Assembly: GCA_038222225.1 (NCBI GenBank)
Contig: JBBRHV010000006.1
Coordinates: 1,626-65,625 of the forward strand
DNA: 64,000 nucleotides
Direction: 5' to 3'
Origin: Candidatus Omnitrophota bacterium
Lineage (GTDB): Bacteria; Omnitrophota; Gorgyraeia; Zapsychrales; JANLHA01
How positions within the stretch are numbered: the first letter of the stretch is position 1; every line of letters starts with the position of its first letter. Under the pieces are notes generated by a model. That model was not told the origin of the DNA and did no database searches. It saw only the letters and a program-made list of their open reading frames with translations. Made by a program: the position numbers and the translations under genes. Below, one piece after another: positions 1 to 57,968 of the stretch.

Positions 1-2
1 AG

Positions 3-21000: not shown

Positions 21001-24000
21001 CGACAAGCGCCAGTGTTCTAAATGGAGAAAGCCAGGAAAGTGCGGACTTTGGCGAGGATCAAGATTTATCTCAGATTCTGTTGATGGCCCAAAGGGACCT
21101 CCGGTCTGGGAACCTTTCGCGGTTTGCCGGGATCAATGCTGAAAATCATAAAGAGCGATTATCAGGATTTATTTCTGAGAGCATTCTTCAGAATGAGCGT
21201 TTTGCGCAGGTCATCGGCCTCTTGTCATTTATTTCTGATAATCAGGCTAGGTCTGCTTATGGCTATTCGCCGATTTGTGAACATATGAGTCAGGCGGTTG
21301 CGGTTGAGACGGCAATAAAAGAATTCCAGGTATTAGGCTTGGCGGGCTGGAAGGTCGATTCGAGAGTTTTGACCGGTGTCAAGGATTGGTGGCCCATCGG
21401 TTCTCATCATTCAGCCGCGATCGTTGTGATCGGGGATATTCGTTTCTTTGTCGATATGACATTTCCTGTTCTCATCGAAAGCAATTCAGATTATGCGGAT
21501 TTAAGCAAGCCTCATGGGCTTGTGATGATCCCTGAACAAGTTTTGATCGAACATCCTTCGTTCCTTCAGCTTTATCAGACAGGGATCGCCAGATCCATGG
21601 ATTGCGGATTTTCTGAAATCAAGGGCGTCCAAAGGGAGGATTTAAAATTGACCATGCGGCTCCTTTCTTTAGACGAATTTTCTGATGTGATCGAAACTAT
21701 TCCCGATGATTTTGTCGCTGAACGCTACTCCAAAGAAGAGAGAGCTGCTTTACCAGCCCAAATTGAGAGCCAGGCACTCAAGATCTATTGTTTCTATCTT
21801 CCTCGGGCGGTTTCTCAGGGAGTCCTGGCAAAAGGAGTCGGCATGGTTTTTGTCCGCCAGGAGGGAACGGGCCGTCGCGAGATCGATTTCTTTTTCTTGC
21901 GATGCAGCCTCACTTATATGGGATTTGGGCCGGAAATGATTAGGCGCGTTTTGAGAGAACTTCGCAAAGGAACATCAGGCGTGAAGGAAGTTGGAATAAG
22001 CTCCGGGTTCTTGAAGATGCTTCCGGAAGACAACGGGTCTTCAAAACGGGCAAGGCTTTCGAGAAAGTTCTTTTGCTATCTGGGATTTGAAGGTGATCCG
22101 TTGACGTTGCGTTTGCAAACTTCCGAGGAAAAAAACAAGGTCCCCTCCGCAGCGACAAATGCTTCGGTCATTTTGGATGGAAAAACCTTGAGCGAACAGA
22201 AACCGCTAACGGTTGAAGAATCGTGGCAGCTATTCGCCAGAAAGTTGGAGAAGGGGGCGCGTACGAATAGTCATTCTGGATTGGAAGACAATCCGGTCAT
22301 GTCGCATTTTAACGAGACGAAAAAAAGGAACGCGAATAATTCCTTTGAAACAAATGCGTCCATTCTTCTGGAATGGAGATTGAGGAAAATCATGCAGCCG
22401 TTTTTTGAAGGCGGATATTACGTCGAGAAGCAGGGGGATTCACGTCATGAAATGTTTCTGCGCGTGTGCCATCCGGAGCCAGAGAGACAGGGCGTGTTTC
22501 GTGGTGAAGACAAGACCCGCGCTTTCTGGGTTCAAGCGAGGGAAGATGAGTTTGAGGTCAACTGGGTCTTTCCGGATCTTCCGCCTGGCAAAGGTCTGGG
22601 GCGTGCTTTCATGGCCAGTGCACTTTTATTGCAGGATGGTTTTTGTGGAGGAAAGAAAAAGTTTATTATTGAAGACACAAAAATCTGGTTGTGCCGCAGC
22701 TTCAGAAAGCTTCCCGGATTCGGGATTTTTTATTGGGCGAAAACGTTTCAGTTTGTTGCGTTGCTGTTTTGGTTGGCGGGCCGCCGGGATGTTCTGAAAT
22801 ACAGGCTGACCGGGCGCGTACCCGAGGTTTCAGCGAAATTTAAAGCCTGGCTGCATGAAAGAAATGAACACAACAAGGGCAAGGCTGTAGGGACAGAGCT
22901 TCGAACGACCAATGCCGCGGTGTTGGGCCGTTGGGTGCATGCGTTCGAAGAGGGGTGGGGGCGTGCGGCGAAAACAACCTTGAGCAGGGTTGCTGATGAA
23001 TCGCTTGCATGGAAAAGAAAAATTAATGAGTGGGTCTCTTGGCTGAAAATTTGCCTGCACGTGACGGACCGCAGTGATCGAGTGGTTGCGGCACAGCAAC
23101 AGGATATCCAGATTATTGGAAACAATTTCGGTACGGAGCAACACCCAGCCCGCGTCGGATCGGTAGTTCATATGTCCAGTTCGCATGAACAGGACCCGGG
23201 ACTACCGGTCTGGCGCACATATTTCGAAGGAAAACTCAGCGGCGGGGTAAACGCGGCTGTGCTTGTCCCTGATCGCATGGGCAAGACGTCGGCGGACTAT
23301 TTTGATGAACTTGTCGCGCAGTTTAATGATCAAAACAATGAAGTTTGGCAGAGATTTCGTGCTTCTGTTGAAGCGAACCCCGATCAGTACGATTCAGTTT
23401 GGTTGAAAGTTTTGAAGCAGGCGCGTGCATTAGAGGTTGAAACACAGAAGCAGGTTCAAGAACCCGTGAAGATATTTTTATCGCTGGATTCCGTCTTGAT
23501 CGTTCCTGAAGATGGAAGCATGACCGGTCCTTTATTGCCGTTGGCGCCGGATTCGGAAGCAACGCATCATTTGCCTGCCCTGCCTGTGGTGCCGGAAGCA
23601 ATTCTTTTATTCATTTTCGTTTTGAGCCGCAAAAGACAAGGCCGCGGGGGGAAAGGCAGGGAGTACAGTTTAGCTGCATTCGTTGAGAGCATGCAGAGCC
23701 GATGGAAGGCCGTGAAACGTGCTGGTTTTACGGGCAAAGATTTCTTTGGAAAACGCCATGTCTATAATCTCACGTTGCGGTCTTCGTGTCGGAATTTTGC
23801 GTCAACAGGGTTGAGTGATCCGTCCGTAAAGTTTGCAGGAGAAAGTAACGCATCAGTTCTGAAGGATGCAAAGAATCGTGAGAAGCGTGACAGTTTCAGA
23901 AGTGGACGGCGGTCTCTTTCTGTCGTGTTCACCGTTCTTGGAGTTGCGATCGTTTTGTTTATCGCGCAGACAGCTTTGGCAGGATTGGAAAGGGCGGCCT

Positions 24001-27000
24001 TGGGGTCGGTTTTTGGAAAAACTTTTGAACTGTGGAAACAGTTCCATGGTCCAGACGTGGTTATTTCCATCTTGGCAACTGCAGTGATTTGGACTGTTTA
24101 TCGGGTCCTTGTTTCATTCAGGGCCATGCGGGCCCGGCTGGGTGAGCCGGCATTATTTTCAGGTTGGCCTGGAATTGCGCGTGTGATCATCGCAAAGGTT
24201 TTAAAGCGGATTGTCTATCCGCACAATAAAAATGCGAAATGCGCATCGGCGGCGGGTTTCCGTTCCTTTGCCCGGAGTTCTCGCCGGAAAGAGGTCCGTG
24301 AGGCCCTGATGCGCGCTTCAGCTCTGCTGCGCGAGTCCCAGCGGCCTCTTCTGGTTAAACACAATGATATAAGGAACGTCCTGTTTTTATTATTCCCGGG
24401 CCACATTCCAGCGGCGGTACGTTTGAAGGGCGAGATTATCTGGTCGCCATGGTGTCCGAGCAAGGAGGCCTTGATTTCACATTTGACCAGCGTGATGGGG
24501 ATTCGTCAGGAAGAGGCGCAGCTCACAGCCGATCTGGTTGAGATCTGCCTTTCCCAAGAGGAAAATGTCTGGCCTCATTGGCAGGCTGCCCGCCGGTATT
24601 TCAAGTCCATCCGTTTCAGGGTTCAGCAGGAAACTTGGCGGCTCATTGGACGTTCTTCAGATCGGCAATTAAAGGTTTACCGCAAGGCTGTCGAAGACCT
24701 CGTCCTTTTTAGGCTTGAGCCGGCCGGCGGGAAATCGGCTCCCATAGTATTTTCGAAGTTCCGGGAGAGGCTGGTTAAGTTCTTTGGTGAGCGGCCCGAA
24801 ACTGCGTATATCGCAGGCTTCGATGGTGAACTGATCGAATGGCTCTATGCCATATACGATGGCGGACTTGGAGAAACAGCGTTTATCCAGGAGGTGGTTC
24901 GCCTCATGGATGTTGCTAATAATGTGGATCATGCGATGTCCGACCATGTTGAGGGCGCATTGAAGGATGCCGGAATTGAGAACCTGAAACCAATGTCCGT
25001 TGTGTTTGCTTTTGATCCGCACAGCGGGACTGCGGCAGATATTCTCAACGGAAAACTCAGAATTAATTATTATCAGTACATGTCGAGTGTGGCTAAGGTA
25101 GAGGAATTGCTGGAGACCCTTCTGTATGATATTTACTTCCATATTATTTATGCGGATCAAATGCGCTCGAATGAATTTTGTGATCAGGCTTCGCGCTCTG
25201 AAGCGCCTGGCGTGGTCAAGGGAAGTTATTTGCGAGGAGAATCGTATCCGGTTTCAAGTTTGGAACAGGGGGACCGTATTCGTCTGCATGAACGATTGGC
25301 CAAGCTGACCGCAGAAAAGATCGCCGCACAATTGGTGTTTGGGAAGGATTCTCAGATCGCCGGTTTGAGGCGGCGCTTTGTGGCGACGTGTGCTAAGTTC
25401 AAGTCCGGAGCGTCAGTCGCAGAATTAGCACTGGAAGTCGCTTCGCGAAGAGCCGTCCTCCAGGTCGAAGGACATGCCGGAACCTTGACAGAATCCGCCC
25501 GACAGCTAACGGAGTATTTGAAGGCTGCGCTATCGGCTGATTTGCCGGAACAGAAGCAGGTTATGGATTATATTGAGATTCAGGCACAAGCCATGGCGGT
25601 ATTTTTTGAGAAGATTGAACTGACCTCCGATTTTCGCGTCAGGCTTATGTCCACAGCGGGCTTTTTTGGGGAAGGCGCGCATGATCGTCACGGCATAGCT
25701 GAGGTCGGCATGAATGGGATTGGGATCATTCCTGTCAATCGGCTTTCTTTTGATTTCTTATTTGAAATAAAGGCCCGCGTTGCGGCTGCGCTGACCGGAT
25801 TCCGTTACCGCAAGATGGTCAATGATCAGCAGGCTGTAGTTCATGGTCAGGCTAATTTGCTGTTGTCCAATCCGATGGCGCGCGAGCTTTTGATCAAGAC
25901 GTTCCGTTTAAACGGAAGCCGGGATCCAGAAAAACGCGCGGATGATGTCCTGGCCGGGCAGCATGATCTTTCCCGTTTTGAGGAGGAATTGAAGGCAATG
26001 CTGAGTGCGTTGGGATCCCGTTATGTGAAGGTTGGATGGGATGAACAGGGAAGAGTGATCTGTCCTTTGCTTGATCCAAGTCAGATGAAAGAGGAGATCC
26101 TTAAAACGCGCTTGCGCGGCAACGTGATCGTTTTTGCGATCCGCCCAACGGTCGGCGGCCGCGCTTTATTCTCGACCTGCCTTCCGGATGACGATGATAA
26201 TTTTATTTATTATCATCTTCGCGGAGCTATAGAATTTGATGAACAGGGAGAATGTAAGGGGATCATTCTCCAGGGAGGGGAACCGCGCGATCCTGACTTG
26301 TTCATGAAATATCATGGATATTTCGGCGTATATTCAGAAAAAGACCTGATGGCGATCCTGCGCAATGACATGATCCTGGCAGCCCGCCGGTTCATGAAGA
26401 GCGGCCTGTTTGATCCGCATACGGAGGTGGGGATTTTATATATTGATCAAAACGGAGTTGATCAGTCGGAGAAGGTCCGGCTTGTCGACCTTGCCCGTGA
26501 TGTTCTGTACCGTCAGCACGATGCTCCCCAGCAGAATCACCCGAGCTATGTTCCTCAGACCCGCATACTTGCCTTAGGAGAAATTCTGCTTTGGTACAAT
26601 TATTTCCATTTGAAAAACAGACTTGGGTTATTGCTGGATTCAGAAGCGAGAGAGTATCTCAGCGCCGTCAGATCGCTCCCTTGTTATGAGAGCCTTGTGC
26701 GTCATTTTCCGACGGTGGAAATTGCTGAGGTTGACGCGCTGCCCCTGGTGGACTCCTCAGGGGAAAAGACCGGTACCAGGGTCGGAGATTTAAGGATGTT
26801 CGGTTCATGGAAGCCGTTCCTGACAGCAGAAGATGCGCATTCGAATAAGACAATGTCTTGGGAACAGCGAGTCATGACGAATGCATCGGTCAACAGCGGA
26901 ACAGAAGACGATGAAGGACCTTTGAGGGAATCATTGATCAGGAAAGAGGCGGGTGAAAGTATAGCGGCGGAAGCTTGGTACATGGGACAGGAAAACGGGA

Positions 27001-30000
27001 AATATCGCGACTTTGGCAGTTATTTGGCAACCCATCCATGGGTGTATGATCTGAAAAAAGGAAAAGCCGACAGCGGGGCCAATTCATCCGTACTGGGACG
27101 CAGAGTTGAGCTAAAGGATTTAGTTTTTCAATTTGCTTTTGAGATGGAACGCCGCGGCCGCGTGATCCGCACCCGGGCAGGAAGGATCCTTGATATTGAA
27201 GAAGACACTGAACTTAAGCGTTCCAGGGTTATAAAAGAGGAGGGGATGAGCACGTACCTCTTGGCTGACCGTTATGAGAGAGGATCGTCCTTGATGGCCT
27301 GGGTTGCGCAGGGAGAGATCATTGGTTACGGCTCTTATGTTCTGTCAGAGAACGATTCAGCGTGGATCGGATTCTGCATTTTTGAAGAGTATCGTGGCCG
27401 TGGGTTTGGCAGCCGGGCCTATTCAAAGTTGATCAGCGTTACACAAAACATTGGCCTAAGGCCAGTTGTGCAGTGGAGATATCCGCCTATTACTGTTTTA
27501 AACAAGAAGCTTTATCCAGGTGCGCGCTGGGATCTTTTGCCGTTTTTGTTGAGAAAGGGATTCCGTCCGTGGTTTGCTGATATTTCAGAAGAACACATTG
27601 AGCGTATTGCCAGAGGGGAACATGTCGGTTCCCGTATTGTTCACCGGTTGGTCCAACAGCCGTTGGTCTTGACGGACCACGCGAATTCCGCTGTTTTGAC
27701 TTCAACAACAGTTGGTCACGAACCGTTCGCTTACCGTGTGTGGGTCAAAACACCTCCGGTGTTAGCCGAAGGTAAATTTGCGGAATTGAGTGTAAAGGGT
27801 GGCTTATTGAGCGCGGCCAGATGCGCCGAGCTTAACGCCGAGTTGGAAGGAGCGAAGAAAAAAATTCTAGCCGAAGGATTCTTTGATGAAAAAGATTTTG
27901 ATCTGGAAGTCCGCATTCTCCGACGTGCCTACCATAGTGAATCCTTCACGCGACAAGTTAAAAAGACAATTCTTTTCCTTGATGAGCGGACATTCCAACA
28001 TTCGTTTGCTCTTTATCTTGCCGTTAAACATGCCATAACAGATCTCTGGGTGGATAAAAATGCGGAAACGCTGATCGCGCATGATCAGTTCGGACATCTG
28101 AAAGATTATATTTCGGAATCTTCCAAAGGAAGATCTTTTAATCCGGCCTGGCGTGAGATTTTCACGATCTTAAACGTTAATGTTTTTGAGTTTTTGCTTT
28201 TGCGTGATCAAGCTCTCAAGAAAGCTGAAGAATTCATTCGTTCGATCGGAAAAGAGGCGGCCGTGCACGGGCTGTTTTGGCTTTATGTATTGATGCTGTC
28301 TGATAGAGAAAAAAAGACGCCCATAGAATGGATCGGCGTGGTTTTCGCCCTTGTCTCTTACAGCCCTGCTGTTTATCCGGCTATCCGAGCACGGGCGCAT
28401 GCTTTTGGTATGTATGAGAATCCGCAGAGGGCACAAGCTTTAGCGCGGAGTGTGGAAGGGGTTTTTGCAACCAAGGACTTGCAGATCGGGGCACAGGCTC
28501 AAGCCAGGCTTCAGGAGTTGCGCGGCTATCAAAAGCAAAGCGAGATTGACCGTTTGGCGGAAAGCATGAGAGCTCTGGTTTCTGCAGTGCAGCGCTTGAC
28601 GGATGAGGGATACAGGCCAGAACAGTTGACGTTGGCGTTTTTCAAAGACGTTCCTATTAATCCGGTTGATCGTAAATCGTGGTTTAAGCCGTTTAAAAAA
28701 TGTCAATGGGATGATCCGTTGCAGAGGAATTTGAGTCTCGGGCGGACATCGCGCGTGAGGAAATCTCCGGGATCTAACAGTGCGGTGCTTAATGGTTTTG
28801 AGCCGTCCGGGTCCTCTATAGGGCATCCGGGCCCAGCTGCTTCCAATAAGGTTTGGCTGATCGTTGCGTTTGTGCTGCCCATCGTTCATGGACTGAGCAT
28901 TGTGCTGGCGAAATATATTCTGGGCGTTCAGCTGGTGCATCCGATTGGGTATTTGTTTGCGTTTTTTGCTTGGACAAATATCTGGATGTTTTTGTTCCGG
29001 ATCGCACAGAGCTTCAGCAACGGCCAGCGTAATGAACAAACGCCATGGAGCTTGTTGCGCCATTGGAGTTTTACTCATCGGGAATGGACGGTGCTTGAGC
29101 AGTCGACCCGGGCAGAAAAGTGGATGATCCGCGTGAACGCGTTATTCAGCCAGTTTATTCTCACGCTGTTATTTATTTGGTCACTGAAAAGCGGCCTTTT
29201 AACAGCGGTTTATTCCATTTTGCAGACCTCCGGCTTTGTGTTCGGCCTGTTTCTTGGAGCGCTTGTTCTGGGAAAAATTCTAAATATTCACGCGGAAAAA
29301 TTACGGTTCCGTCATTTCGCCGGCATTGGTTTAGCTGTGACCGGGGTTGTGTGGGCTTTGGCAAGTGTGGGCATAAGTCAGGGCCGCGGGATCCGGGGCC
29401 TAATTGAAATGGTCATCAGCGGCTTAACCAGTTCGGGAGCAGGGTATGCCATCGGGTTGGCCGGGCTGGTCGGCTTTCAGGCCCTTCTGCAGAAGATCAT
29501 TATCAGTGTGATGAATAAGGGCAAGCCGTACCGGCAGAAACAATTGCCTTATGTTATGACAAAATACGGATACCGGTTTGGGATCACGACAGCGTTGTTA
29601 ACGCTTCTCGGATTAGCCATCATTTCTCCTGCCGTGGCTCCGTCGGTCGCTGAGATTGCAGCGTGTTTTTTCAATCCGTATTTGATCGCCTTGGCGGGAA
29701 TTTTTCCAATGATATGGATCACGACCTATACCTTGTACCGCAAACTTCCTTTATTGCAGCTGACCTTTTTCCGTGCAACCATTCCTTTCTGGGTCATGCT
29801 CGGGTCATTTGCCGCAATGCATACAGCGGTGACGTTCAGCCAGGTCATATCCGGGCTTTTTGTTCTATCGGCGGCGGTTGTGGCAGCGACGGGCACTCAG
29901 AATGGAAACAATCAAGACGCGGTGCCGGATTTTCAAGCAGAGAACGGCCAGGACAAAAGAGAAGTTGTCGTACGCTGCCATTCTTGGTTTAAGCCATGGG

Positions 30001-33000
30001 AAAAAAGGAAGAACCGGATCCATTTGCGTCCGGCCAGTAGAATTGTTTATGTTGCGAAGTACATCTGGGATCAATTGAACATTCGTATGATCGTTGAAAA
30101 GGAAGGAGATCAACAACAGGTGGATGCCCGAAGTATCAACGGCCTTGCACGTCTGGCAATCTTTGACGGGGAAAAAATTTCAATTCGAACAGAGGGCTTG
30201 GCAGATAGGCAGATCAAAGGCAAAGCGGTTGAACTTTTTGCTAGGATTTTGAGAGACCCGGGGGTTCTTCAGCACAAAACGATTTGGGACATTTTTTATT
30301 TCTTTGATGAAGGGCGGGGGATAGATCAATTGTCCTTGCGTAAATATAAGCGTGCGGTTGATTTGATCAAGCTGGATGCGGCGGAGTCGGACCGACCTGA
30401 TAGGGCGCAAGTCAATTCCTCAGTTCTATTCGGAGCATCTCTGGCGCAGATCGATGCCTCTATCGTTGGTGATGTGGTCGGAATGATCATGTTTGCTTTG
30501 GGGTCGGCGGTTACCTGCATTGCGGCCCTGTTGATATGGCTGGTTAGAACACAGCGGTTCCGTATTCATGGGTTCTGGGTTAGGAGCTATACACCGGAGG
30601 AGATGAAAATTCGCCGGAGCGTTCATGCGCGGATGATCGATTTTTGCATCGGAAGCAAGCATTCTCAGAGAATGGCAGCTCAACGCATGGCGGGCCGTTT
30701 TACGCATTCGGCACGCAAATCATACAGATATCTTGTTGATATCTATGGAAGAGAAAAAAGCAAAACGGAATTTTTAAAATTTTTGAGAGAAACAGAAAAG
30801 GATCGACTGGTTACTTTTTTAGTTTTCTTAGAAAAGAAGAAGATGCGGTTGATCGTCGCTCCGCGATTTGTGGAAGGCGGAAAAGAATTCCGTCATCTGG
30901 ACATGCAGCATGGGTTCGCTTTGGAGGGCGTTCTAAAAAATTATGTTTACGGATATTTTGAAGGGATTGACCCAACGGACGATCAAGGAAAGATCGTGCT
31001 GATGTATTTGGCGGGGGAGGAGGGGTTCAAACAGCTACAAGAGTTGGCATTTTTATTTATTACAGGCGGAATATCCATAGTGAAGCCAGTCGAGCTCTTT
31101 ATGGATTCGGGAACGATAGGTGAGATCAAGACTGTGCGTGATCTTTTGCGTGTTGAGTATTTCTATCAGATAAAAAAGCAGAAGCAAAAAGAGGCGTTAG
31201 AAAAACGCATTGCCGAGGATAGGGCCGCGCAAGACGGGACCAACGCGGCGGTTTTAGAGAACGGCACAGCGGATCATGAACAGGACGGTGGCGAAACAAA
31301 TGCCGCGGTGCTGGATTCCGAAAACGAAAGCAAAGGGGAATTTTTGGCCGGGACCCAGCAGGGGATTCGGCTTGGGCTTTTGACACTTGAGGAGGCGCGT
31401 CTTTGGGAGAGGGCGGCAAAGATTGTTGATGCTCCTGTCGGCATGGAGATAGAATTCAGTCATCCGGAAATTGCGACATTAGGTGATGATGAGTATGATC
31501 TTCCCTATTATATTAGCGAACATTATTCGGATCCTCATTTGGAATTTAATCTTGAGCCATCTTGGAATCTTGGCATTCAAAGATATTTGGTAAGGCATAT
31601 TTACCGCAGTATGGGGTTGTCTGAGGATGATGTGATCTCGGTCCAGTTAAACTGCGGTATCCGCAAGAAAGATTATGAGGGGCTTTCTCAAGCTTCCCGC
31701 GGATTATTTTTATCTATGGCGCATTATTTAATGCTTGCGGTTACGATCGTTTATGCATCAAATCAAAGGATCTTATCAAAGAAATCAGAAAAGGTGGCCG
31801 AAAAACGGGATTGCGCTGAACCGCTTGATGGAGAACCCTACATTCGGATCGAATACGGTTTTCTTGATACGATCGATGAGGGGTGGCTGGTTCTCTGGAT
31901 CTTGCATCAGGTTATTTGGAAAACTGCAAGGTTCAGCGACGATCAAAAAATTTCCGGCAAACTCATTCGTGAAGAGGAGCAGTTGCTAATCAAGATCGGG
32001 CAGGACATGGTTATTCAATTGCATGAACGTCTTCCAGGTATTAGAGGATTAAGTGCGAATGATATATTTGACCTGTCGGATGCTCGGACGTGGTTTAGGT
32101 TGGTTCCGTGGCGCCAGGAAAATCCTGCTACGGTGAAGGCCATTGACAATCTTCTCCAGAAAACTGTGCTTCAAGTTTTGTCCACTTTAGGAGGGTCAAA
32201 CCATACGCCAGAGAAGGAAGTGCCGGTTTGGATTTTACCGGCTGGAAATCGGGAGACATTTTTAAGATGGTTTGGTAATCGGGAGCAGGCGATTGCTCAT
32301 ATTCCTGAGCCTACAGGTGGACAGGACGAGGTAAGGGATGGCGGAGTTAATTCTGCCGTTTTGGATCAGAGAAACATTGTTGGTGTTGAAGTGCACTGTC
32401 CGGCAGGATCAGGATATTGGCTGAGAGATATTCTTTATGAAGGGATCCCGGTTCAAGGCGGGCTGGTGATCCGGTATTATGATCAGTCGCGGTGGTCGTC
32501 AGGAATTGCAGGGATACGGACGGTTCGCAGTGATCATGGATTTTTTACAGAAGTGGATATGTTAAGAATATTAAATGGAGAGGTCCCGACAGACATTTTC
32601 TACGTGGGGGCTTTTCATTTGGGATGTGTTCGGCATGCGTTTGAAAGCGCGCTTCAAATTCAAAAGACAGGCCTGTGGAACGGGTCTCAAGCAAATCATC
32701 ATTTCATTTCAAACCGCATTGCCTGTGATTGTGATGATTTCGATATTCGTGTCAGTGATGCTTTGCCGAGGCTGAATCTGAGGACTGCAACGCCGTTTGC
32801 CTGGCGCAGAAATTGGAGTGTCAAAGCAGCGGTTATTCGGGGAGATGAGGTTGTAAGTAACACACGATTTATCGATCAGCTTCAAGCGAGGCTTTATTAT
32901 TGGAACGATGTGCCGGAATTTAAGGAATGGATAAGCCGTGGGATTCAGCAGACAAACGCAGCGGTTTTGAACCAGAGAATGTTTGAGATCGTGGATACAC

Positions 33001-36000
33001 ATATGATCAGGCGCAGAGTAGCGCAGAATCTTCAGGCATTGGAAGGCCTGCTGCGACAAAATTTTTCAGATCAAATGCTGGCAGAGGCTGCGCAATATCT
33101 TGCGCCGTTCACCACAGAACCGATCCTGTTCCATGAGATTTCAGATCAGGAGCGTGGGGAGCTGACGGTCGTTGATTTAGGCAACCGGCCGGCGGGATCG
33201 TTTAAGCCATGGATCATTTATGGTGTGATCAAGGCTATTTTGGAAGGGAAGACAACGATCGTGACCGCCAGCACAGGAAATCAGGCTATTGCTGTTCAAA
33301 AGATCATTGAGCAGATCAATGCAACGCCGTCGTTGATCGGTATCAACGCCCAAAGGCTTGGAATAAAAGTTGTTCTATTTGTGGGCCGTCATACTCCGCT
33401 GGAAAAAATCGACCGCATCAAGCACGGTGACGGACTTGTTGAGATTGTCGGAGATCCGAGGGAGAACGGCAGGTTGTTTGAGAACTATGAGGGGGCCTAT
33501 CGCGCCGCACGAGTCTTTGCAGCCCAAGAGCCTTCTAAGAATTATTTTGTTGAACATGCCGGGCGGGAGGCCATTGCCGGGTATATTGTTTTGGCAAACA
33601 GGGTCTTTGATCAGTGGCTCGCTCAGGGGCGAGATCTTCATCAAATGACAATACGGGTTGGGGTTGGCGCCGGAGGTTTGGCCAGCGGGTTTGCGATCGC
33701 GGCATTTTTAAGGGGAGCGGGCGTACGGATCATTGGGGTTCAGACCGATCGGACTCGTCACGCCTTTGATTCTCTATTTCAGGGAAGGATTCTCCCCTTT
33801 GTTTCAGGGGATACGAGTGGTGAATTTGATGAGGATGGGATCGACACAAAGACGCTTGAACCGATGGCGTTTTGGGCATTATCACATTTCTTGGATGGAT
33901 TGGTTCTCGTTGATCATCAGGAAGTTCCTTCGGCGATAGATTCTTATACACAACATGGAGTTGCGGCTGAAGGCGCGGCAACGCTGCCGTTCATTTCTTT
34001 AGAAAGATCAGCCCGTTTGTTTGATGATGAAGGGTCCCGTCAGCAGATTTTGATCGCCACCGGAAGAAACCGCAGAATACAACCGGGCTTGAACAGTGAT
34101 CAAGAGGCTAATGCCGCGGTACTTGGCGTCATGACCCCGCATGATTTTGTACATGATGGACGAATTTTGAATGAAGTTCATGCGTCAGGATCGGTTGTGG
34201 GGATCGTCCGCGAGATCAAGCGCGGCGCATCGCGTGTGGCAAAAACACCGGATCATGTCCGGCAGTTGACGCAGAGTGGGCTGATCGTTTTGGTAGAAGC
34301 TAAAGCTGGCGAACGCAGCGGGTACAGTGATGATCAGTACCGGCAGGCTGGCGCGTTCATTGTCCTTTCGGCTCGTGAGGTTTGGGAGCGGTCGGATATC
34401 ATCGTCAAGGTGAAAGAACCTCTGCCGCAAGAATATCAATATTTCCGCCGGGGATTGATCTTGTTCACCTATTTCCACTTAGCAAATCCGGAAAACAAAA
34501 ATTTGACAGAGGAGTTGTTGCGCACCGGGGTGACAGCTATTGCCTATGAATCTGTTGTGAAGGATGGACGGACAGTTCTGTTGGAGCCTATGTCGCATAT
34601 TGCCGGATGGTCTGCGGCGATTCTTGGTTTGTTGTATTCCCGCGCGTCGCCGGATTACAAGTTCATGATCGAGCCCGATGGCCGTATAAAAGCGGAGTTA
34701 GCCGCTGATATTCAGCAGTCCGCTGAACCGCTGGCCGGGCAGATGCAAAAAGAATTCGACACTTTGCGCGAGTCGCGGTTCTGCATGGACGAACCCGGAT
34801 TAAGGATTTTGATAGAAAAATTTGGAGGGCTTGGTAATGTCGTGGTTCTGGGTGGAGGCAATGTTGGACGTCAGGCGGCCTATATGGCGATGTTATTACA
34901 ACCACGTTCGGTCACGGTTTCCCAGTTGCCACACTTGCAGGAGGCGTTGCGTGAAGATCTCAGACGGTATCAGGGTCAAACGGTATTTAAGATCGTCACG
35001 CCTGATTCGGCTGAACTCATGGAGGCTTTAGAGCAGGCGGATGTCATTATTAGCGGGATCTATGCGCGCACTGCTGAGGGCGCTACCCGCGCATTGAAAG
35101 TTATTGATGAAGGCCTTCTTGAGAAGATCAGCCGCGGCAAGAAAAAGGTCATTATCGATGTCGCCATTGATCAAGGAGGGAATATTGAGCCGGCATTTGA
35201 CCGGCAGGAAACGGATCCGTTTACCTATCTCGACCGCCCGGCTCGACTGGACAAATTTGGTAATTTGCGCATGGATATTCCTAACATGCCGGATGCGTTT
35301 GGTCCGGTCGCTTCTCCCTATTTGTCACATGCCACCCAACCGTTTCTTCTTTCGCTGGTCCGCATGTCAAACGCGCAGGATATCCGCGAGAGGGATCCAG
35401 TGCTTTGGACCGGGGTTGCCGTAATCGATGGGCAGTTACTGGATAGGGCTGTGGCACAGTCCCATGGGTTGAAACACGGTGGTCAGGGGACAAACAGCGC
35501 CGTGGTGATGAGTGATTCCTTCGGCAAAGAGAGTGACGATCGTGTCAGATTAAAAGGTTGTGGGTCAAGGTGGGCGCAGGTTAAGGCTGTTATCGGCCGC
35601 TCGAGTATCCGGGAAGAAGATTCCATTGAAGTCACTCTTCCGGGCAAAGATTTCCGCATGGATCTTAAGGCTCTTGCGCTGACGGGGTTGAAGGATATTG
35701 GATTGGCCAATTACCGCAGGGTTATGGAGGCTATGGAGCTTAAACACATTTGGAAACAGGTCTTTCTATCGGACATTCTTAAAGCCCTGGCCAGAGTGAA
35801 GTTTGTTCTAATCGATGATCCCCAGCGGAATGGGTCAGCGTCCCTGATCGCTGATGGATGGAGACGATTTATTGCTGCGGCCGTTTCCGTTGAAGCCCCT
35901 GGCCGGATCTATTTGTCACGGTCTCTTGTTAAGGACATAAAGAACAGAAAAGAATTCGATGCCCTGATCGGATTTGTCTGGAGTGCGGGTTTTTGGATAG

Positions 36001-39000
36001 CAGCGCAAGACAAGGGTCTTCTGAACAATGAGGACCTGAGGCGCGCAGCCGTGGCCATGGAAGGTTTGCCTGGCATTATTCTGGATGAGGGGTCGTATAT
36101 GCAAAGCGATTTAAAGAAAGCAAGCGAGTTTGATTTTGTGATGGCTGACCGTATGGTTGAAGAATTCCGGCTGAGATTGGGGAATCCCGGGGTAACCCTG
36201 GTGGCGGAATCGTTAAATTGTGACGAGGAGGATCCAGACCATCAGACGGGGTTGATCATCGCTGCTGTGATGGACCATCCTGCCATTACCAGGGTGCTGG
36301 ATTATAATTCGATGAGTCCTTTTGTAAGACATGGTGGATTCTTGATCACCGACGGACAACAGAGAAATTCGGTGCCGTTATTTGACGGTGTGCAGGAGAT
36401 TGTGTTGGTCGGCGGGAATTTAAGCGCGTGTCTTAAGACGCAGCTTTTTATATGGTTATTCGCCTTGCGGCATGAGTTTGAACAGGGGGTTGTATCGGGT
36501 AACTGGGTCTTTCATATTCCTTCGGGCGCAGTGTTTGATGTTAACGAACAGATGACGGGTAATGAATTTTTAAGGAGAACGGATGGCGTGCGGAAAACAT
36601 TTTTAAAAGAGTTTTCCATTTTAAACGAAGGGTTTGCGGCAGATCGTTTCGGGTTGATTCGCGTGTATAGACAAGAAAAGTTTTCAGTGACTTTAAGGCT
36701 GTGGAAAAATTTTGAAGATTTTATGAGGCGATTGGATTCTGTGAAGAGGATGGCCCGCTTGGGTACGTCTAACTCCTCCGTATTGAAGCCGATGGCCGTT
36801 GGGATTGGCGTGCATGACGGAAGCCACATGAGTGAGGCGGCGGCGAAACGTACATGGGCGGCGCTTGAAAACGGAGAGCGCGTGAAGTTTGCCGATATAA
36901 GGGATCATGTTTTACCGGGGATGATTGATCCGATTGCTCAAAGCCTTTTGCGGGATGAAAGGGTTTGGATCTTTGTTCCGGATGTTATGGCGGGAGAGCG
37001 CGGTCCGCCGGTGCTGTGGTTTGATTCTTCTGAATATTTTGTTGTTTCAGCTATTTTAAATCAGCAAATCATTATTCCTGTCGGGCTTTTGGACCATCCT
37101 TCCCTGATCGAAATTTTGCGTTTTGAAATGGTGAATGTTATTTCTGGTGAAGAAGACGTCGCGCAGGGAGCTCTTTTGGCACAAAGTGTTTTGCGGTCTG
37201 TTCTCATGGTGATCAATAAGGGAAAAGAAGTAAAAAATAAGTCGAAAAAAGACCATGCTGCTGAAGAGATCAATTCTGCCGTTTTGAGCGGAAAGGACAA
37301 AGAATACCGTGTGATTTTTGAAGGCAACAAAACAACGATCCGTGGTGAAGAGGGATATTGGGTCCATGTTCAAGTTTTGATTGATATGGGGGAGATTCCC
37401 GCCGAAGGCAAGACGATTCGCAACGGGGACCGCTGGCAGCAGGAAACGTCCGAAGAAGTCTTTGGACAGGGAAAAATTATTGCGGTTCAGGGTGATTATT
37501 TAAAGGCCGAATTTGGGACCAAAGGAATGCGGCAGTTCAATTGGAGGGTGGCGGATATTGAGATTTTTGTTTCATTGAAGAGCCTTTTGTTTAAAAAAAT
37601 CCGCGACTCCGAGGAGGAAAAAAATAGGGCTTTTGCCGAAATTCAGAGGGGCGAGCTAGCCGGGTTGATAGACTCGGCGCTGCGTTGCGGGTATCGATTG
37701 CAGGATTTAGCCCGGGAAGCGGTTATATCCCCCAGTTATATAACAGGTATCGTGAAGGGGAGGATGCAGCCATCGACAGACGTTATCCGTAGGCTTGTTG
37801 CTGCAACAAAGAAGGCCATGGCCCATCCAAAAATGATTGGGCGAAAAAAGGGCGGGATGTTGATTAGCGCAGAAGAACGCCAAAGGATAGTAGCTCGTCT
37901 GCAAGCGCTTATTCAAAGAGGGTTCTTGCCTGCCCGGATCGCGGAAGAAGCGAAAATTTCTTTAGCACTTCTTTCACGCGTGCTTAATAACGGATGGGGG
38001 TTGGGTACCCATGCTCATGAAAAAGTGATGAGTGCTGTTGAGAAGATGGAGAAACAAAAACCGAATCTTGATCAGATAAGGGATGTCTTAGTCAAGATTT
38101 TAAACAGCGGTTATTCATTTGTTGAAGTGGGAGAAGTGGTCGGAGTGAGTGACATAAAACTGAGGCGCATCTACAAAGGAGAAACCGGTTTTGCTGTTGA
38201 CGAAAAAGAACTGTTAAATAAACTTCGGATTTTGAGCGGGCAGCCACATCCGAATGCTGTTTTAGGGAAAGCATTGTACCGGTTAGCCGTCCTTTTGGGT
38301 TCGCAAAAACGTGTGGCACAAATCTGCGCAGAGAACACGTTTGTCATCAGCAAACTCATCCGCGGTTCAGGCGGGGTTAAAGCCGATAAACGGAAAAATT
38401 TATACGCCTGCATTGTGCGCGCGTTACCAAAGATCGCAACGTGTTTGACTCTGGAATTGTCCGGTAAAGGGCTTGGTTCTTTAGCTGGGTCCATGGCAGA
38501 GGTCTTGCGCAACAGATCAGGCGCCGTGCGCTTGTTTACCGATGTGGACTATTTGACCTTTAACGCAGCCCGGATCCACGAGTTCCTGGCGGTTGAGAAT
38601 GTTCTACTTGAGCTGACGCAAAACATTTTCCTCAAGAAAGCGCGCGAATGGATCGATGAACAAGGTGTACATGTCATTTATCATGTTGTCCCTCAAGATC
38701 AGGCTGACTTAAATGGAAGAAACAAACCGTTAACGTTATCGAAGGTCCAGGGTGAACGTGATTGGATTGGCGCGGAGTTTTTTGACGAGCGTTCAGGACA
38801 TGCCGTCAATTCCTCTGTTTTGAATGCCGTTCACTCAGATATGTGGGTCAGGGTGAAGAATACAGTCCCGGCTCTGGAGCAGATGAAGCAGATGTTTGAT
38901 GCAGATCAAGATTTGCTCACAGAAGAAGGAGTGAGAGTGGAGAGAGACGTCCGCGACACGTTGATGGCGTTGCGCTCTTCTTTGAGAAACGAATGGGCTT

Positions 39001-42000
39001 TGGCGTTCGCGGAAGATCTTGTTGCCCTCATGCCGGATCCTGAACACTTTGATGAAACGGGTGAGTGGATGACGTGGTTTAAGCCTCATGCATTTAATGG
39101 GAAATTCACCCTTGAAGCATGGGGTCTCGGGCAGGAGTTCATCGATCGGTTGAACAAGGTGCGCGGGGCAGACACGAGCAAAATCAACAGCGTCGGGGTT
39201 AATTCGTCTATTTTTGGTCATTTATTCGGGGCAAAGAAAGAAGCGGCAGACATTGATTCTACGGAGGTCAGACAGGAGATAACAGAGTGTGATTTTGATC
39301 AGGCCGTGCGCGGAGTTCGACGCCTGGTTAATGAAACGCCGACAAATGAAATTGCAAAAGTTCTTTACGGCCTGCTTCAGTATGAGGAGGACTATTTGTA
39401 TTATCAGATTGTTCGTTATGAGGCTGCCAAGAGAATAGCCAAGGCATCGGTGGAGGAATATGAAGATCTGAAACAGTTGATCAGCACATTGCGGATGCTC
39501 GGGAAGATGATTGAAGATCGCCAAAAATTGTTTGAGGAAACAGGGGAAACGAACGTTGACTTTTATTTATTAGCCCTTCGACAGTCTCGACAGAAGTTAG
39601 CAAGATTATTCCGTTTTCATATTCGGGGGTATGAGAATCTTGACCGGGTCGTTCAACGGTTGGACAGCGACACGGTGGAGTATTTATTTTCGTTCTTCAG
39701 CAGGGCATCAGTTCAAGAATTCACCAGCTTAGATGAGCTCATGCAGATCATGACATTTGTCCGGCGGCGCACTTCTTTGGTGGATGAAGATCTGTTGGCG
39801 CGCGCCAAAGAAAGCCTTGAACGGATCATGGTGGAATGGGTTTGTGAAGTCGGCGGAGAAAAGGATCCTGATCTAAGGAGCCAAGAAGTCAGGAATATTC
39901 TAGAATACATTACACAGCATGATCGGACATTCCGTCAGAAATTGAAAGAAGGCATCAAGAGGGCCATTGGTTTCTTAGCCCGTCAAATCAGAAAGAGTCA
40001 AGATGACGCAAGGGAGGCGCAAAACTTGGCAGATAAGAAGGCCGTTGAAGGACGGCAAAACACACTGATTGATTTAAGCGTGAGTTATTCGGCGCTGATG
40101 ACAGCAGTGGATGATGAGTCAGGAGACGGAAATCTTGATGGAAACAATTTATGGGAAAGCCAAGACAGCCAACAGACAGATAAAAAATCAAACAATGATT
40201 TGGGTGCAAATGCTTCTGTATTGATGGGAAGAGAAAATTACAGGCATCTTAAAAAAAGATTTGATGATACAAACGCGGCGCTATTGATTGGAAGAAGTGA
40301 CAGGTCACAGACAAACAAGGAAATAAGGGCGAAGAGGCTCATTCAGGGGTCGATTTTAAATGCGTTTCTCTTTTGTCTTCCTGCTTTGGTCATTGCGGTG
40401 ATCGCTGTTGTGACTTGGGGGCCAAGCTGGAAGATATTTGTGGCGGTCTGGGTTATTCTGGCGTTAACACGGTTTGCAATGTCCATGCGCCATATTCCCG
40501 ATATTTGGAGAACATTGCAGGGCTTAGGTACGCCAACGAAGGGCGGCATCATTGAATTGGCTAAGGCCACTAAGACCAAGATGGAAAGGAAAGCTGTGGC
40601 GCGTGAGCAAGCCCGCAAGAAAGCGATTCATCAGGCCAAGGCTGCTATGGGCAGGGTTTCTCCCAAGAGTTATGCCATACAAGAGGAGTATAGCACCGAG
40701 GTGGGCCGAAAGATCCCGGCGGAACTTAGAAACGACGAAGAAATTGTTGAGCAATATGAAAAATTGACAGCCCGTGCGGAAGAATTTTTTGCGCGCAAAG
40801 TACGTTCACAAAAACCGAAAGAGACTGCGCCGCAGCATATTCCTGAGGTGGCACCAATACCGATAGAGCCTGTCCAAAGACAGGAAGCGCCTGAGGCGCG
40901 CGAAATGGCCAGAAAACGGTTCATTCGTCGACAGCTGGCTGAGGCGCGCCGTTATATTGAAAAGCTGGACAGCCGCGGGTTTATGAGCGCGCATGAGTTT
41001 TTGAACGCCGCCGAAACGTTTAAACCGGAGTGCGTTAAAACATATCCGGATGATGCTCAGGTGAAGGATTTTCTGACGTGGTTTGATTGTGCAGTTCAGG
41101 CTGTGGCACAACAGGTCGCGGATAATGTTCGGCGCATGGAATTTGAGGAGCGCAAAAAGGAACTGCTGGCATCATGGCGAATGATGGTTGAGAAATTGGA
41201 AAGAGCCCGGCAACGGCTGGATCAGGCTATGGCGGCAAGGATTTCCAAAGACCGCGCTTCGTTGGCAGAGTTGCAGAGAAGGATGGATCAACAGGTCGCG
41301 GATAATGTTCGGCGTATGGAATTTGAGGAGTGCAAAAAGGAACTGCTGGCATCATGGCGAATGATGGCTGAGAGATTGGAAAGAGTTCGGCAGCGGCTGG
41401 ATCAGGCTATGGCGGCAAGGATTTCCAAAGACCGCTCTGCGTTAAGTGAGTTGCAGGTAAGGATGGATCATCTGGCAGCGACCATAGAACAGCTTCGTCA
41501 GGCAAAAGATGTTTTGCGCGCGTTGACTTTGCCATCCGCGACCGCCGGTGAGGATGATTTGCGATCCGCGATTTTACAGGTGCTTCCCGTTGAAGTCAGA
41601 GAAGACCCGCGCTTGGCGCTTTTTATCGAACAGGCCAGGTTGCGGTTGTATGAACACGCTGTGACGCGGGTTTTGGATATTTTGTCTCAGTCTTCAGTTG
41701 ACCCCAGAACTTTTGATGACAGCGAGGCCTTCCGCCAGGCATGGATTGCGAAAGTGCCGGTATGGATGCAGGAGGATCAACGTATCATTGCAGCCCTTGA
41801 AGAGCGTATTGATCAAGGCCTTTTGGTAATAACCGAACAGGAGAAAAAGTCTGCTCAAGTTAAAAGGGAACAGGCATTAGAAAAAAGAGCGACTATTGGG
41901 GAACTTTATACCGCCTTAGGAAAAAATGATTTTGGAACGGCACTGACGAAAGCCTTTAAGTTGCGCACATTGGTTGCTGATATGCCGGTAGAGGATTGGT

Positions 42001-57017: not shown

Positions 57018-57968
57018 ATGTATAGACCGGAAATTCGGGTGTTTGACTGCACGATCCGCGATGGCGGGTTGATGAACAACCATTTATTTGATCACAGTTT
57101 TGTCAGAGATGTTTATAAAGGATTATCCGAGGCTGGGGTTGACTATATTGAGCTCGGATATAAAAATTCCAAAGATCTTTTTTCGCCGGAGGAATACGGC
57201 GCCTGGAAATTCTGTGAGGATGACGAAATCCGAAAAGTGACCGAAGGCATTGAATCCAATGCCAAGATCTCGGTGATGGTGGATATCGGCCGGGTGAATA
57301 TGGAAGATATAAAACCGGCTTCTGAGAGTCCCGTGCACATGGTCCGCGTGGCCAGTTATGTGAAGGATATTGATAAGGGGATCTCGATGGCCAATGAATT
57401 CCATGATAAGGGTTATGAAACCACCATTAATATCATGGCTATTTCCAAAGATCAGGGGCCGGACCTCGAAGCCGCTCTTTATCAGATCGAAAAGGAAAGC
57501 AAGGCGGATGTGGTGTATATTGTGGATAGTTTTGGGTATTTTTATCAGGAAAATATTGAGCATTTGACCAAGTTGTATAAGAGGATTTTAAAGACACGCG
57601 AGATTGGTTTTCATGGTCATAATAATCAGCAGTTGGCCTTCGGCAACACGATTGAAGCGATTATCCATGGGGCGAATTTTCTGGATGCAACAATTTTCGG
57701 GATCGGCCGGGCTGCCGGGAATTGTCCGATCGAGCTTTTGCTCGGGTTCTTAAAGAATCCGAAATTTGATATCCGTCCGGTTCTTGATCTGATCTCCCGG
57801 GATTTTGTCCCGTTGCGTGAAAAGATCGAATGGGGATATGTCATTCCTTACGCGATCGCCGGTATGCTCAATGAGCATCCTCGCGCTGCTTTGGCTTTGC
57901 GAAAGACGGAGAAGAAAGAGAATTACCGTGATTTTTATGAGAGTTTGACTAATACGGGGTTGGATTAA
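57018..57968 (+). CDS. HMGL-like (DRE-TIM) aldolase / pyruvate carboxyltransferase-domain protein
   Basis: 'VFDCTIRDGG' N-terminal motif and 'FHGHNNQQLAFGNTIEAI' (HxH metal site) typical of the HMGL/4-hydroxy-2-oxovalerate aldolase/isopropylmalate-synthase superfamily. Strong SD. 316 aa. Confidence 0.8.
   Translation: MYRPEIRVFDCTIRDGGLMNNHLFDHSFVRDVYKGLSEAGVDYIELGYKNSKDLFSPEEYGAWKFCEDDEIRKVTEGIESNAKISVMVDIGRVNMEDIKPASESPVHMVRVASYVKDIDKGISMANEFHDKGYETTINIMAISKDQGPDLEAALYQIEKESKADVVYIVDSFGYFYQENIEHLTKLYKRILKTREIGFHGHNNQQLAFGNTIEAIIHGANFLDATIFGIGRAAGNCPIELLLGFLKNPKFDIRPVLDLISRDFVPLREKIEWGYVIPYAIAGMLNEHPRAALALRKTEKKENYRDFYESLTNTGLD

Follow-up and report, generated by a model that had tools for sequence, protein, structure and literature searches.

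A giant open reading frame of an Omnitrophota bacterium bears a recurring peptide motif at its module junctions and may encode a cellular polyprotein

Introduction

Can one polypeptide carry polytopic membrane proteins, exported proteins and cytoplasmic cofactor enzymes side by side and still deliver each of them to the place where it works? The question is raised by a 64,000-nucleotide stretch of DNA from a Candidatus Omnitrophota bacterium (assembly GCA_038222225.1, contig JBBRHV010000006.1, positions 1,626 to 65,625; hereafter the window), most of which is taken up by a single giant open reading frame (ORF). A preliminary description, made from the sequence alone, had pointed to topologically incompatible neighbours at positions 28791–35507 of the window and had proposed that the chain is cut, that its modules are produced separately or that many of its targeting signals are relics. 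In the present study, we find that every module boundary of the ORF bears a short peptide motif, and we lean, by a modest degree, towards the view that the ORF encodes a cellular polyprotein, which a site-specific cytoplasmic protease would cleave at these junctions.

Giant ORFs are a described trait of the Omnitrophota (West-Roberts et al. 2023, 10.1101/2023.11.21.568195; Nielsen & Lui 2026, 10.64898/2026.06.07.730766; Seymour et al. 2023, PMC10066038). West-Roberts et al. (10.1101/2023.11.21.568195) noted implausible localisations and suspected cleavage but lacked information on the cleavage points, and a 2024 survey of huge proteins named unknown protease motifs as the obstacle. Nielsen & Lui (10.64898/2026.06.07.730766) read the chains as intact, membrane-anchored single topological units, and whole-chain topology placed metabolic enzymes on the periplasmic face; the terms polyprotein, cleav-, linker, junction, motif and fusion have no occurrence in that preprint. 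A recurring junction motif and module-sized units were likewise not found by term search in the Omnitrophota giant-ORF papers covered here, and our literature search for Omnitrophota together with 'polyprotein' found no paper pairing them. Thus the topological puzzle is already known for this class of ORF, and what appears to be new, as far as the literature searched goes, is that a motif recurs regularly at the junctions and that the modules between them are gene-sized and turn over like cassettes.

Results and discussion

A single frame holds about 55 gene-sized modules

The frame is free of stop codons from the 5' edge of the window to its own stop codon at 56889–56891, and the ORF (listed as 78..56891 and confirmed by translation) encodes at least 18,937 residues. 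This figure is a lower bound since translation of nucleotides 3–200 shows no beginning of the frame within the window. Because, in addition, there is no ATG, GTG or TTG in nucleotides 3–78 before the GTG at 78, and the first helix of a rhomboid module begins upstream of nucleotide 78, the ORF probably extends beyond that edge. The residues upstream of nucleotide 78 read SEPLENNKAVVSK and contain a possible degenerate junction (window 1–120). Amino acid (aa) numbers given below count from nucleotide 78. The longest ORF in any other frame across nucleotides 1–56891 is only 353 aa. At ~110 Da per residue the whole chain comes to the ~2 MDa that had been estimated earlier.

The ORF is divided into ~55 modules of 19–1011 aa with a median of 311 aa, which is like that of ordinary bacterial proteins. 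Pfam, NCBIfam and PDB-sequence (phmmer) searches across the whole ORF gave ~20 distinct Pfam families, none of them dominating. HATPase_c (PF02518) occurs at two sites and GNAT (PF00583) at several, together with APH, Pkinase, Metallophos, TPR, HTH, SEC-C, two methyltransferase families (PF02636 and PF13578) and a GT2-like domain. Pfam domains cover only ~14% of the chain, and most modules have no homologues in the databases searched (Pfam, PDB sequences and a protein database). Transmembrane (TM) segments were called from Kyte–Doolittle (KD) hydropathy of 19-residue windows and the summed ΔG of the Hessa scale, a crude hydropathy predictor rather than DeepTMHMM; peak-picking gave 34–49 candidates grouped in about a dozen modules. 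These searches, the hydropathy analysis and direct reading of the sequence bear out the mixture of polytopic membrane, single-anchor, twin-arginine translocation (Tat) and lipobox modules with cofactor enzymes in one frame that had been reported before, although two modules labelled single-anchor in the preliminary description (M23 and M40) both look like 2-TM hairpins by hydropathy prediction. The catalytic motifs of the rhomboid, CPBP, HPr, PALP and alanine dehydrogenase (AlaDH) modules are intact.

A short peptide motif marks every module boundary

The junctions follow the consensus [G/E/Q]-[T/A/V/I]-N-[S/A]-[A/S]-V-L, rarely with Gly at the position after Asn (+1), as in GTNAAVL, VNSAVL and TNASVL. 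The strict form N[AGS][AS][VI][LIVFM] occurs 44 times in the giant ORF, compared with 0.96 times in residue shuffles (maximum 6 in 500 shuffles); the other five frames have 0, 0, 3, 1 and 1 matches and the six neighbouring genes have none. With seven degenerate sites lacking the final Leu and three sites with Ser in place of Asn (TSASVL, TSAAVL and TSSAVL), ~54 junctions are obtained, and each module boundary carries the pentapeptide or such a variant. Across the giant ORF, no junction falls within a Pfam domain or a TM bundle. The fraction of disorder-promoting residues in the 15 residues on each side of the junctions is 0.71–0.74, as against 0.53, and the junctions are probably set in hydrophilic, flexible linkers. 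Targeting signals follow at short distances: the Tat signal lies 17 aa past its junction, the hydrophobic (h-) region of the lipobox signal ~25–30 aa and the first TM segments 5–47 aa.

The codons of the motif match the background usage of the ORF, AGY as well as TCN codons being used for Ser and TTR as well as CTN codons for Leu, and thus selection acts on the peptide rather than on DNA or RNA. For the same reason, a DNA-level repeat or recombination site is ruled out, the codons being synonymously variable. Internal start codons are also ruled out, as Met is not enriched in the 25 aa after the junctions (0.39 compared with 0.36) and the Val codon of the motif is not preferentially GTG (11 of 39). 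An N-glycosylation sequon (N-x-S/T) is ruled out by Ala at the +2 position in 32 of the 44 strict sites, and autoproteolysis of the SEA type by an N-to-O acyl shift is unlikely with Ala at +1 in 17 of the 44. When the motif strings were searched for in literature text, only chance matches in unrelated proteins were obtained.

Mini-modules of 19–71 aa are present between some junctions (5127–5237, 22158–22352, 26880–27080, 31242–31298 and 52386–52598). Such pieces might be small peptides in their own right, might mark tandem cleavage sites or might be what is left of modules since deleted.

An uncut chain cannot place all modules where they belong

The preliminary description had held that an unprocessed single chain cannot put every module where its signals and cofactors require, and this is correct, with the firm case at aa 218–4101. 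Here APH, Pkinase, HATPase_c and GNAT domains stand together with the Tat module and the lipobox module without a credible TM segment. Between the lipoprotein module and the kinase next to it, even the most hydrophobic 19-residue window reaches a KD value of only 1.07, with a summed ΔG of +7.7. An uncut chain, having no TM candidate there, cannot export the one while keeping the other in the cytoplasm, and this conflict is independent of thresholds. The Tat signal, read directly from the sequence, is canonical (MSRRSMLKMLALAGASLPFMTTTAFA), comprising SRRSMLK, the h-region MLALAGASLPFMTTT and AFA↓D (the arrow marks the bond cut), but it sits 1,208 aa into the ORF rather than at the N-terminus of the polypeptide, and only after a cut at the preceding junction would it lie 17 aa from an N-terminus. 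In the lipobox module, TPR repeats follow downstream of the signal.

Counting parity conflicts along the whole chain, which had been proposed as a check, was run in crude form. Fifteen domains that need ATP, NAD, pyridoxal phosphate (PLP), S-adenosylmethionine (SAM), acetyl-CoA or DNA were set against the two exported modules, with either orientation of the N-terminus allowed. This left 7–8 domains misplaced at thresholds of 1.6–2.0 and none at 1.5, so that the check is much weaker than had been assumed, and the interpretation in the preliminary description is supported in part. The zero at 1.5 hinges on counting two segments as TM, namely aa 990–1008 (LIVHAGI), which lies within the metallophosphatase fold (summed ΔG +7.1), and aa 1895–1913, which belongs to the globular region of the lipoprotein module (summed ΔG +9.5); neither is credible as a TM segment. 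The whole-chain count was dropped as a decisive test, being too sensitive to the threshold.

The stretch singled out earlier, 28791–35507, contains only seven of the ~55 modules and does not include the clearest conflict. Inside it, a single strong TM segment stands between the HPr-like domain and the PALP and AlaDH modules, but the conflict is a problem of orientation and not a firm violation of parity, because a borderline segment at aa 10542–10560 could restore parity in an uncut chain. The anchor at aa 10137–10155 is acidic on its upstream flank and strongly basic downstream (RTQRFRIHGFWVR), and as a free protein it therefore reads N-out/C-in. Such an anchor suits a free 23-residue N-terminal tail but not a position downstream of an HPr domain in the cytoplasm, and thus the problem of orientation remains.

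Related loci gain and lose a module together with one motif

The neighbouring genes of the giant ORF point to a relative, the metagenome-assembled genome (MAG) Candidatus Omnitrophota bacterium RA.bin146, with 81% identity in MnmA and 94% in the HMGL-like protein, and a giant ORF stands at the syntenic position there. The same motif is present in this syntenic ORF (L002/L084, L084 being from a 77-kb metagenome contig with an ORF of at least 3,640 aa) and in a third variant (L082), including the orthologous junction before the last module. Otherwise the modules of the relatives hold different enzymes, namely a protein kinase, an NAD-glutamate dehydrogenase and a SPASM radical-SAM enzyme, along with a membrane segment, and the last module is the only one common to their giant ORFs. 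Because the adjacent HMGL gene is 94% identical (window 57018–57968 compared with L002 12978–13928) and only the last module is homologous (57–60% identity), the giant ORF is a hypervariable island in a conserved neighbourhood.

The comparison of L082 with L084 provides a single clean event. One extra module of 582 aa in L082 (aa 202–784; L084 aa 3348) is inserted exactly from motif to motif, between a SPASM module that is 86% identical and a last module that is 76% identical. An internal paralogue of the last module in the window (22911–23846) has GGVNAAVLVP between its two halves, and the terminal copies have no junction there. These two differences show that a module is gained or lost as a unit with one motif.

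The last module, including its counterparts in L002 (14057–14980, minus strand), L082 and L084, and the internal paralogue all end in [F/L]PV, a TM segment and RRR(K). This element resembles C-terminal sorting signals, but it is neither GlyGly nor any named CTERM motif. AlphaFold2 prediction for the last module from two sequences gave a predicted local distance difference test score (pLDDT) of 35. Searches of the protein database with the PALP and AlaDH modules gave three weak matches and with the last module none; the collection seems not to contain these ORFs.

A polyprotein cut at the junctions is the reading that we favour

Of the three ways out offered in the preliminary description, cutting of the chain gains strong, if indirect, support from the junction motif. 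Where gene-sized modules with targeting signals of their own are all bounded by one peptide-level motif, that motif is most simply accounted for as a protease recognition site, as in viral polyproteins. In the model that we propose, the ~55 modules would be translated as one chain, each being a complete protein with its own targeting information, and a site-specific protease would cut at the motifs on the cytoplasmic side of the membrane, probably co-translationally or shortly thereafter. The HPr-like, PLP and AlaDH-like enzymes, the kinases, the GHKL ATPases and the GNATs would then remain cytoplasmic, the polytopic modules would insert into the membrane, and the Tat and lipoprotein modules would be exported, which would remove the topological conflict. 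A cytoplasmic site is suggested because the junctions flank cytoplasmic enzymes and because export of the Tat module in its folded state requires that both of its ends have been released beforehand. From the ORF, its modules, the statistics and conservation of the motif and the indels, all of which are observed, we infer that the motif is a cleavage site, as well as its compartment and its scissile bond. For the latter, one candidate is N↓[S/A/G], with Asn at P1 and a small P1' residue, which we take to be a 3C-like specificity; the other is [T/A/V/I]-N-[S/A/G]↓[A/S], where positions –1 and –3 are occupied by small residues, which presumably corresponds to the specificities of assemblin and signal peptidase.

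Two proteases are recognised in the ORF, both outside the stretch 28791–35507, and both are intramembrane enzymes and thus poor candidates for cutting soluble linkers. The rhomboid module retains its GLSA serine and AHGAHLGG histidine motifs. Its best NCBIfam match is rhombosortase (TIGR03902, 35.8 bits compared with a cut-off of 84), and its homologues, in the best 150 of 6,508 matches among 1.8 billion representatives, are stand-alone proteins of ~200–400 aa. The active site of rhomboids faces outside, and the junctions flank cytoplasmic enzymes, so that a role of this module as the junction protease is unlikely by reasoning. The CPBP/Rce1-like module has the motifs EEIQYR, FVAVH and HMISN, and its best NCBIfam matches are the C-terminal-sorting proteases MrtJ and MrtS, below cut-off (MrtJ 30.9 compared with 75). 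The two enzymes may relate instead to the [F/L]PV-TM-RRR element of the last module. The sole hint of a soluble metalloprotease in cis comes from a pair of HExxH motifs (HEWTH and HEKAH, at 48189–48203 and ~47895) in a 644-aa soluble module without a database match. A C39-like peptidase in the lipoprotein/TPR module, guessed from a Q..C / H / D pattern, was rejected, as there was no Pfam match at E≤10 and the NCBIfam match PA2778 covers the TPR part only. No chymotrypsin-like GDSGG motif was found in the giant ORF.

Should the model hold, it would describe polyprotein gene expression in a cellular organism with cassette-like gene turnover, a counterpart of the viral polyproteins, and giant bacterial genes would gain, in one lineage at least, the map of cleavage sites that has been missing. 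It would also bear on how ultra-small, host-dependent bacteria organise their accessory functions. The motif recasts the question of cleavage as a test for neo-termini at ~54 predicted sites, and the junctions offer rational cut points for structure prediction and annotation of such ORFs, for which whole-chain topology calls may be meaningless. In general terms, some Omnitrophota might use a 'protein-level operon' to express unrelated genes in large sets that change quickly, in which one multi-megadalton product is cut at N-[S/A]-[A/S]-V-L into dozens of proteins of ordinary size that sort independently to cytoplasm, membrane and periplasm, with cassettes of module and junction joining and leaving; we regard this wider proposal as evenly balanced.

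Alternative explanations

Several points weigh against the polyprotein model. Cleavage at the motif, in this ORF and in the related ones, is putative. Apart from the rhomboid and CPBP modules, no protease domain, and in particular no soluble one, was recognised in cis by Pfam, NCBIfam or phmmer searches of PDB sequences over the whole ORF, and AlphaFold2 prediction for the HExxH module from a single sequence was uninformative (pLDDT 37). The motif is found in one narrow lineage only, namely the window and three or four related loci; protein-database searches gave no more, in a collection that seems not to hold these ORFs. The relatives have fewer junctions per length (six in 3,640 aa), with some modules exceeding 1,300 aa, and the parity conflicts depend on the threshold and vanish at the laxest one. 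The Nielsen & Lui 2026 preprint treats such proteins as intact membrane-anchored chains, which is the reading given to 'multi-enzyme' Omnitrophota long proteins from DeepTMHMM. Applied here, the product would be a giant inner-membrane-anchored multi-enzyme protein, with the motif as a linker or docking element for a chaperone or partner and the Tat and lipobox signals as relics or ordinary TM passes. The lack of a recognised soluble protease suits this reading; many of the membrane modules have an even number of TM segments and are topologically neutral, and a conflict-free parity formally exists at a threshold of 1.5. Yet that solution requires the two segments within soluble folds (ΔG +7.1 and +9.5) to cross the membrane, the lipoprotein module and the kinase have no TM candidate to separate them, and the anchor at aa 10137–10155 would have to insert against the positive-inside rule. 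As for the relic signals suggested in the preliminary description, module turnover is fast enough for unselected signals to persist, which leaves some room for them, but a frame kept open over 56.9 kb and intact catalytic motifs speak against them. A docking role, moreover, leaves unexplained why the motif is present at every boundary, why two motifs are separated by only a 14-residue spacer and why module and motif are gained and lost together. We consider an intact chain unlikely, while taking it seriously.

It is more doubtful still that the ORF is an exported, MARTX-like multi-effector polyprotein whose modules are freed at the surface or in a prey or host and act on the prey. Omnitrophota are described as predatory or parasitic, with one giant protein up threefold in prey-attached cells; the locus is hypervariable (HMGL 94% identical, and only the last module shared, at 57%), the repertoire of kinases, phosphatase, acetyltransferases and methyltransferases resembles an effector set, and the last module ends in an element like a C-terminal sorting signal. 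On the other hand, the Tat, lipoprotein and polytopic modules fit the envelope of the producer itself, the AlaDH, PLP and HPr modules have the appearance of housekeeping-type metabolic functions, and Pfam and NCBIfam searches gave no C80/CPD, RTX, SecA_DEAD or C39 match and only a SEC-C zinc motif. Separate production without proteolysis, which the preliminary description had also entertained, through internal initiation, 2A-like StopGo skipping or cutting of the mRNA at the junctions, appears very improbable. The motif is indeed short, peptide-encoded and regularly spaced like the 2A sites of some viral polyproteins, and an effect of the nascent chain would be compatible with the data. StopGo, however, needs NPGP and eukaryotic release factors; as the 56.9 kb contain no in-frame stop, translation from any internal start would run on to the end of the ORF, Met is not enriched after the junctions, and Val codons that are GTG in a minority of motifs are not start codons. 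The lack of nucleotide conservation is evidence against an RNA-level processing site, and mRNAs cut at the junctions would be without stop codons. We give the least credence of all to a non-functional ORF, whether an assembly chimaera or a decaying array of fused pseudogenes. The low Pfam coverage and the many modules without homologues in the databases searched would agree with it, but a stop-free frame of 56.9 kb cannot persist by chance when the other frames reach at most 353 aa; the catalytic motifs of five modules are intact, the same architecture and motif recur in related MAGs and metagenome contigs, and an identical 4.6-kb 3' end is present in the assembly of run SRR19962012, possibly from the same sample.

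Comparison with known systems

The ORF fits the 'multi-enzyme' class of giant Omnitrophota ORFs as defined in the 2026 preprint. It shares with that class the phylum, a length of more than 10,000 aa and many unrelated Pfam families with none dominant, as well as HATPase_c, GNAT, methyltransferase and radical-SAM-like domains, scattered TM segments, poor conservation and a mostly dark sequence. It differs from the 'Archaeovorin' and dockerin types in that no SecA_DEAD, C39, S8 or dockerin domain was found in the window by Pfam and NCBIfam searches, only a SEC-C motif of 19 residues; the window does not reach the 5' end of the ORF, where an N-terminal peptidase could still be encoded.

Likeness to the polyproteins of picorna-, poty-, corona- and flaviviruses extends to one ORF for unrelated mature proteins, membrane proteins beside soluble ones, a short motif of small residues at the boundaries and exposed linkers. 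In contrast with these, the present ORF lies on a cellular chromosome next to housekeeping genes, has ~55 modules rather than roughly 10–16, shows cassette turnover and has no recognised chymotrypsin-like or papain-like protease in cis, and cleavage is in this case a prediction. Asn followed by Ser, Ala or Gly resembles what we take to be the 3C-like site Q↓S/A/G, and T/V-N-A↓S presumably resembles the V-N-A↓S site of the herpesvirus assemblin; these likenesses are leads and not tests. MARTX toxins are likewise very large bacterial proteins with variable, unrelated enzymatic modules, unstructured linkers and strain-variable content. Their linkers are cut at short Leu-containing sites, which differ from the motif of this ORF, and the ORF has no C80 domain, RTX repeats or type I secretion signal (Pfam and NCBIfam) but has membrane, Tat and lipoprotein modules of its own and metabolic enzymes. 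The closest engineered parallel is the nif 'fuse-and-cleave' polyproteins (PMC6130400), in which bacterial genes are joined into one 'giant gene' with sites between them for stoichiometric expression; those constructs are synthetic, with tobacco etch virus (TEV) protease sites and few genes per fusion, whereas this ORF is natural.

Features of the stretch 28791–35507 and of the remaining ORF

The coordinates of the main features are collected in Table 1. The membrane domain that opens the stretch 28791–35507 was assigned ~10 TM segments from nine hydropathy peaks and one resolved by eye, with the crude predictor used here, and basic loops after TM2, 4, 6 and 8 give it an N-in/C-in topology by the positive-inside rule. 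The label 'DMT' given to it earlier is not borne out, with no Pfam match even at E≤5 (aa 9568–9951) and none in NCBIfam. At 28848–30230 this domain is joined at its C-terminus to an HPr-like phosphocarrier domain, an architecture that, to our knowledge, has not been seen in phosphotransferase systems. The HPr-like domain keeps IHLRPAS (with the His15-like residue) and RSINGL (Ser46-like), and it is expected to be cytoplasmic. The PLP module has the SFK lysine and the STGN motif, and its best NCBIfam matches, below cut-off, are threonine/serine dehydratases. Alanine dehydrogenases in the PDB align with the AlaDH-like module from their own residue 2, which corresponds to 28 aa past the junction. 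Both of these modules are soluble, and the stretch also contains two unknown modules.

Table 1. Features of the giant ORF in window coordinates, with aa numbers counted from nucleotide 78
Feature	Positions	Strand	Residues and remarks
Giant ORF	3..56891	+	~55 modules, median 311 aa, range 19–1011
Rhomboid intramembrane serine protease module	171..662	+	Pfam Rhomboid, aa 32–195, E 1e-24
Tat signal	3702..3779	+	aa 1209–1234; module 3651–5126
Lipoprotein signal, lipobox LLTSGC	5313..5375	+	Cys 1766; ~25 aa past junction; ~1,745 aa into chain
CPBP/Rce1-like glutamic intramembrane protease	12528..12803	+	aa 4151–4242, E 5e-13
Junction NSAVL	28776..28790	+	aa 9567–9571; directly 5' of the stretch 28791–35507
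Membrane domain, ~10 TM segments	28848..29888	+	aa 9591–9937; no Pfam family; N-in/C-in
HPr-like domain, PF00381	30009..30230	+	aa 9978–10051, E 9e-8; same module as the 10-TM domain
Junction NSSVL	30414..30428	+	aa 10113–10117
Single strong TM anchor	30486..30542	+	aa 10137–10155; KD 2.34, summed ΔG –2.0; 23 aa past junction
Two junctions, NAAVL ... NAAVL	31242..31313	+	aa 10389–10412; 14-residue acidic spacer, no functional module inside
Borderline hydrophobic segment	31701..31757	+	aa 10542–10560; KD 1.71, summed ΔG +1.9; in an unknown 350-aa module
Junction NSAVL	32349..32363	+	aa 10758–10762
Junction NAAVL	32955..32969	+	aa 10960–10964
PLP enzyme domain, PF00291 (PALP, fold-type-II)	33135..34028	+	aa 11020–11317, E 5e-22
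Junction NAAVL	34110..34124	+	aa 11345–11349
AlaDH/PNT-family NAD enzyme, PF05222 + PF01262	34200..35441	+	aa 11375–11788, E 7e-43 and 7e-20
Junction NSAVV	35493..35507	+	aa 11806–11810; closes the stretch 28791–35507
Last module	56070..56888	+	only module common to the relatives' giant ORFs (57–60% identity)

Downstream of the giant ORF are ordinary bacterial genes for an HMGL-like protein, KDPG aldolase, a PMT_2 glycosyltransferase, a radical SAM enzyme, MnmA and MutL; the identical 4.6-kb piece in the assembly of run SRR19962012 spans the 3' end of the ORF. The coding strand shows a strong positive GC skew that is uniform over the whole ORF (0.12–0.27 per 2 kb).

Three modules are paralogous to one another (11208–12377, 43386–44597 and 38808–39200; 25–36% identity), the third being a short fragment. 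Both long copies have a CxxxCxxC motif (GCAWPCLHC and GCTEPCLHC), which suggests that they may be radical-SAM enzymes; a search of the protein database with the alignment of these paralogues gave no matches. Finally, a 180-nucleotide tandem duplication at 41109–41470, with two copies that are 91% identical, is recent and in-frame and lies in a long, charged, probably coiled-coil module that opens with a 2-TM hairpin.

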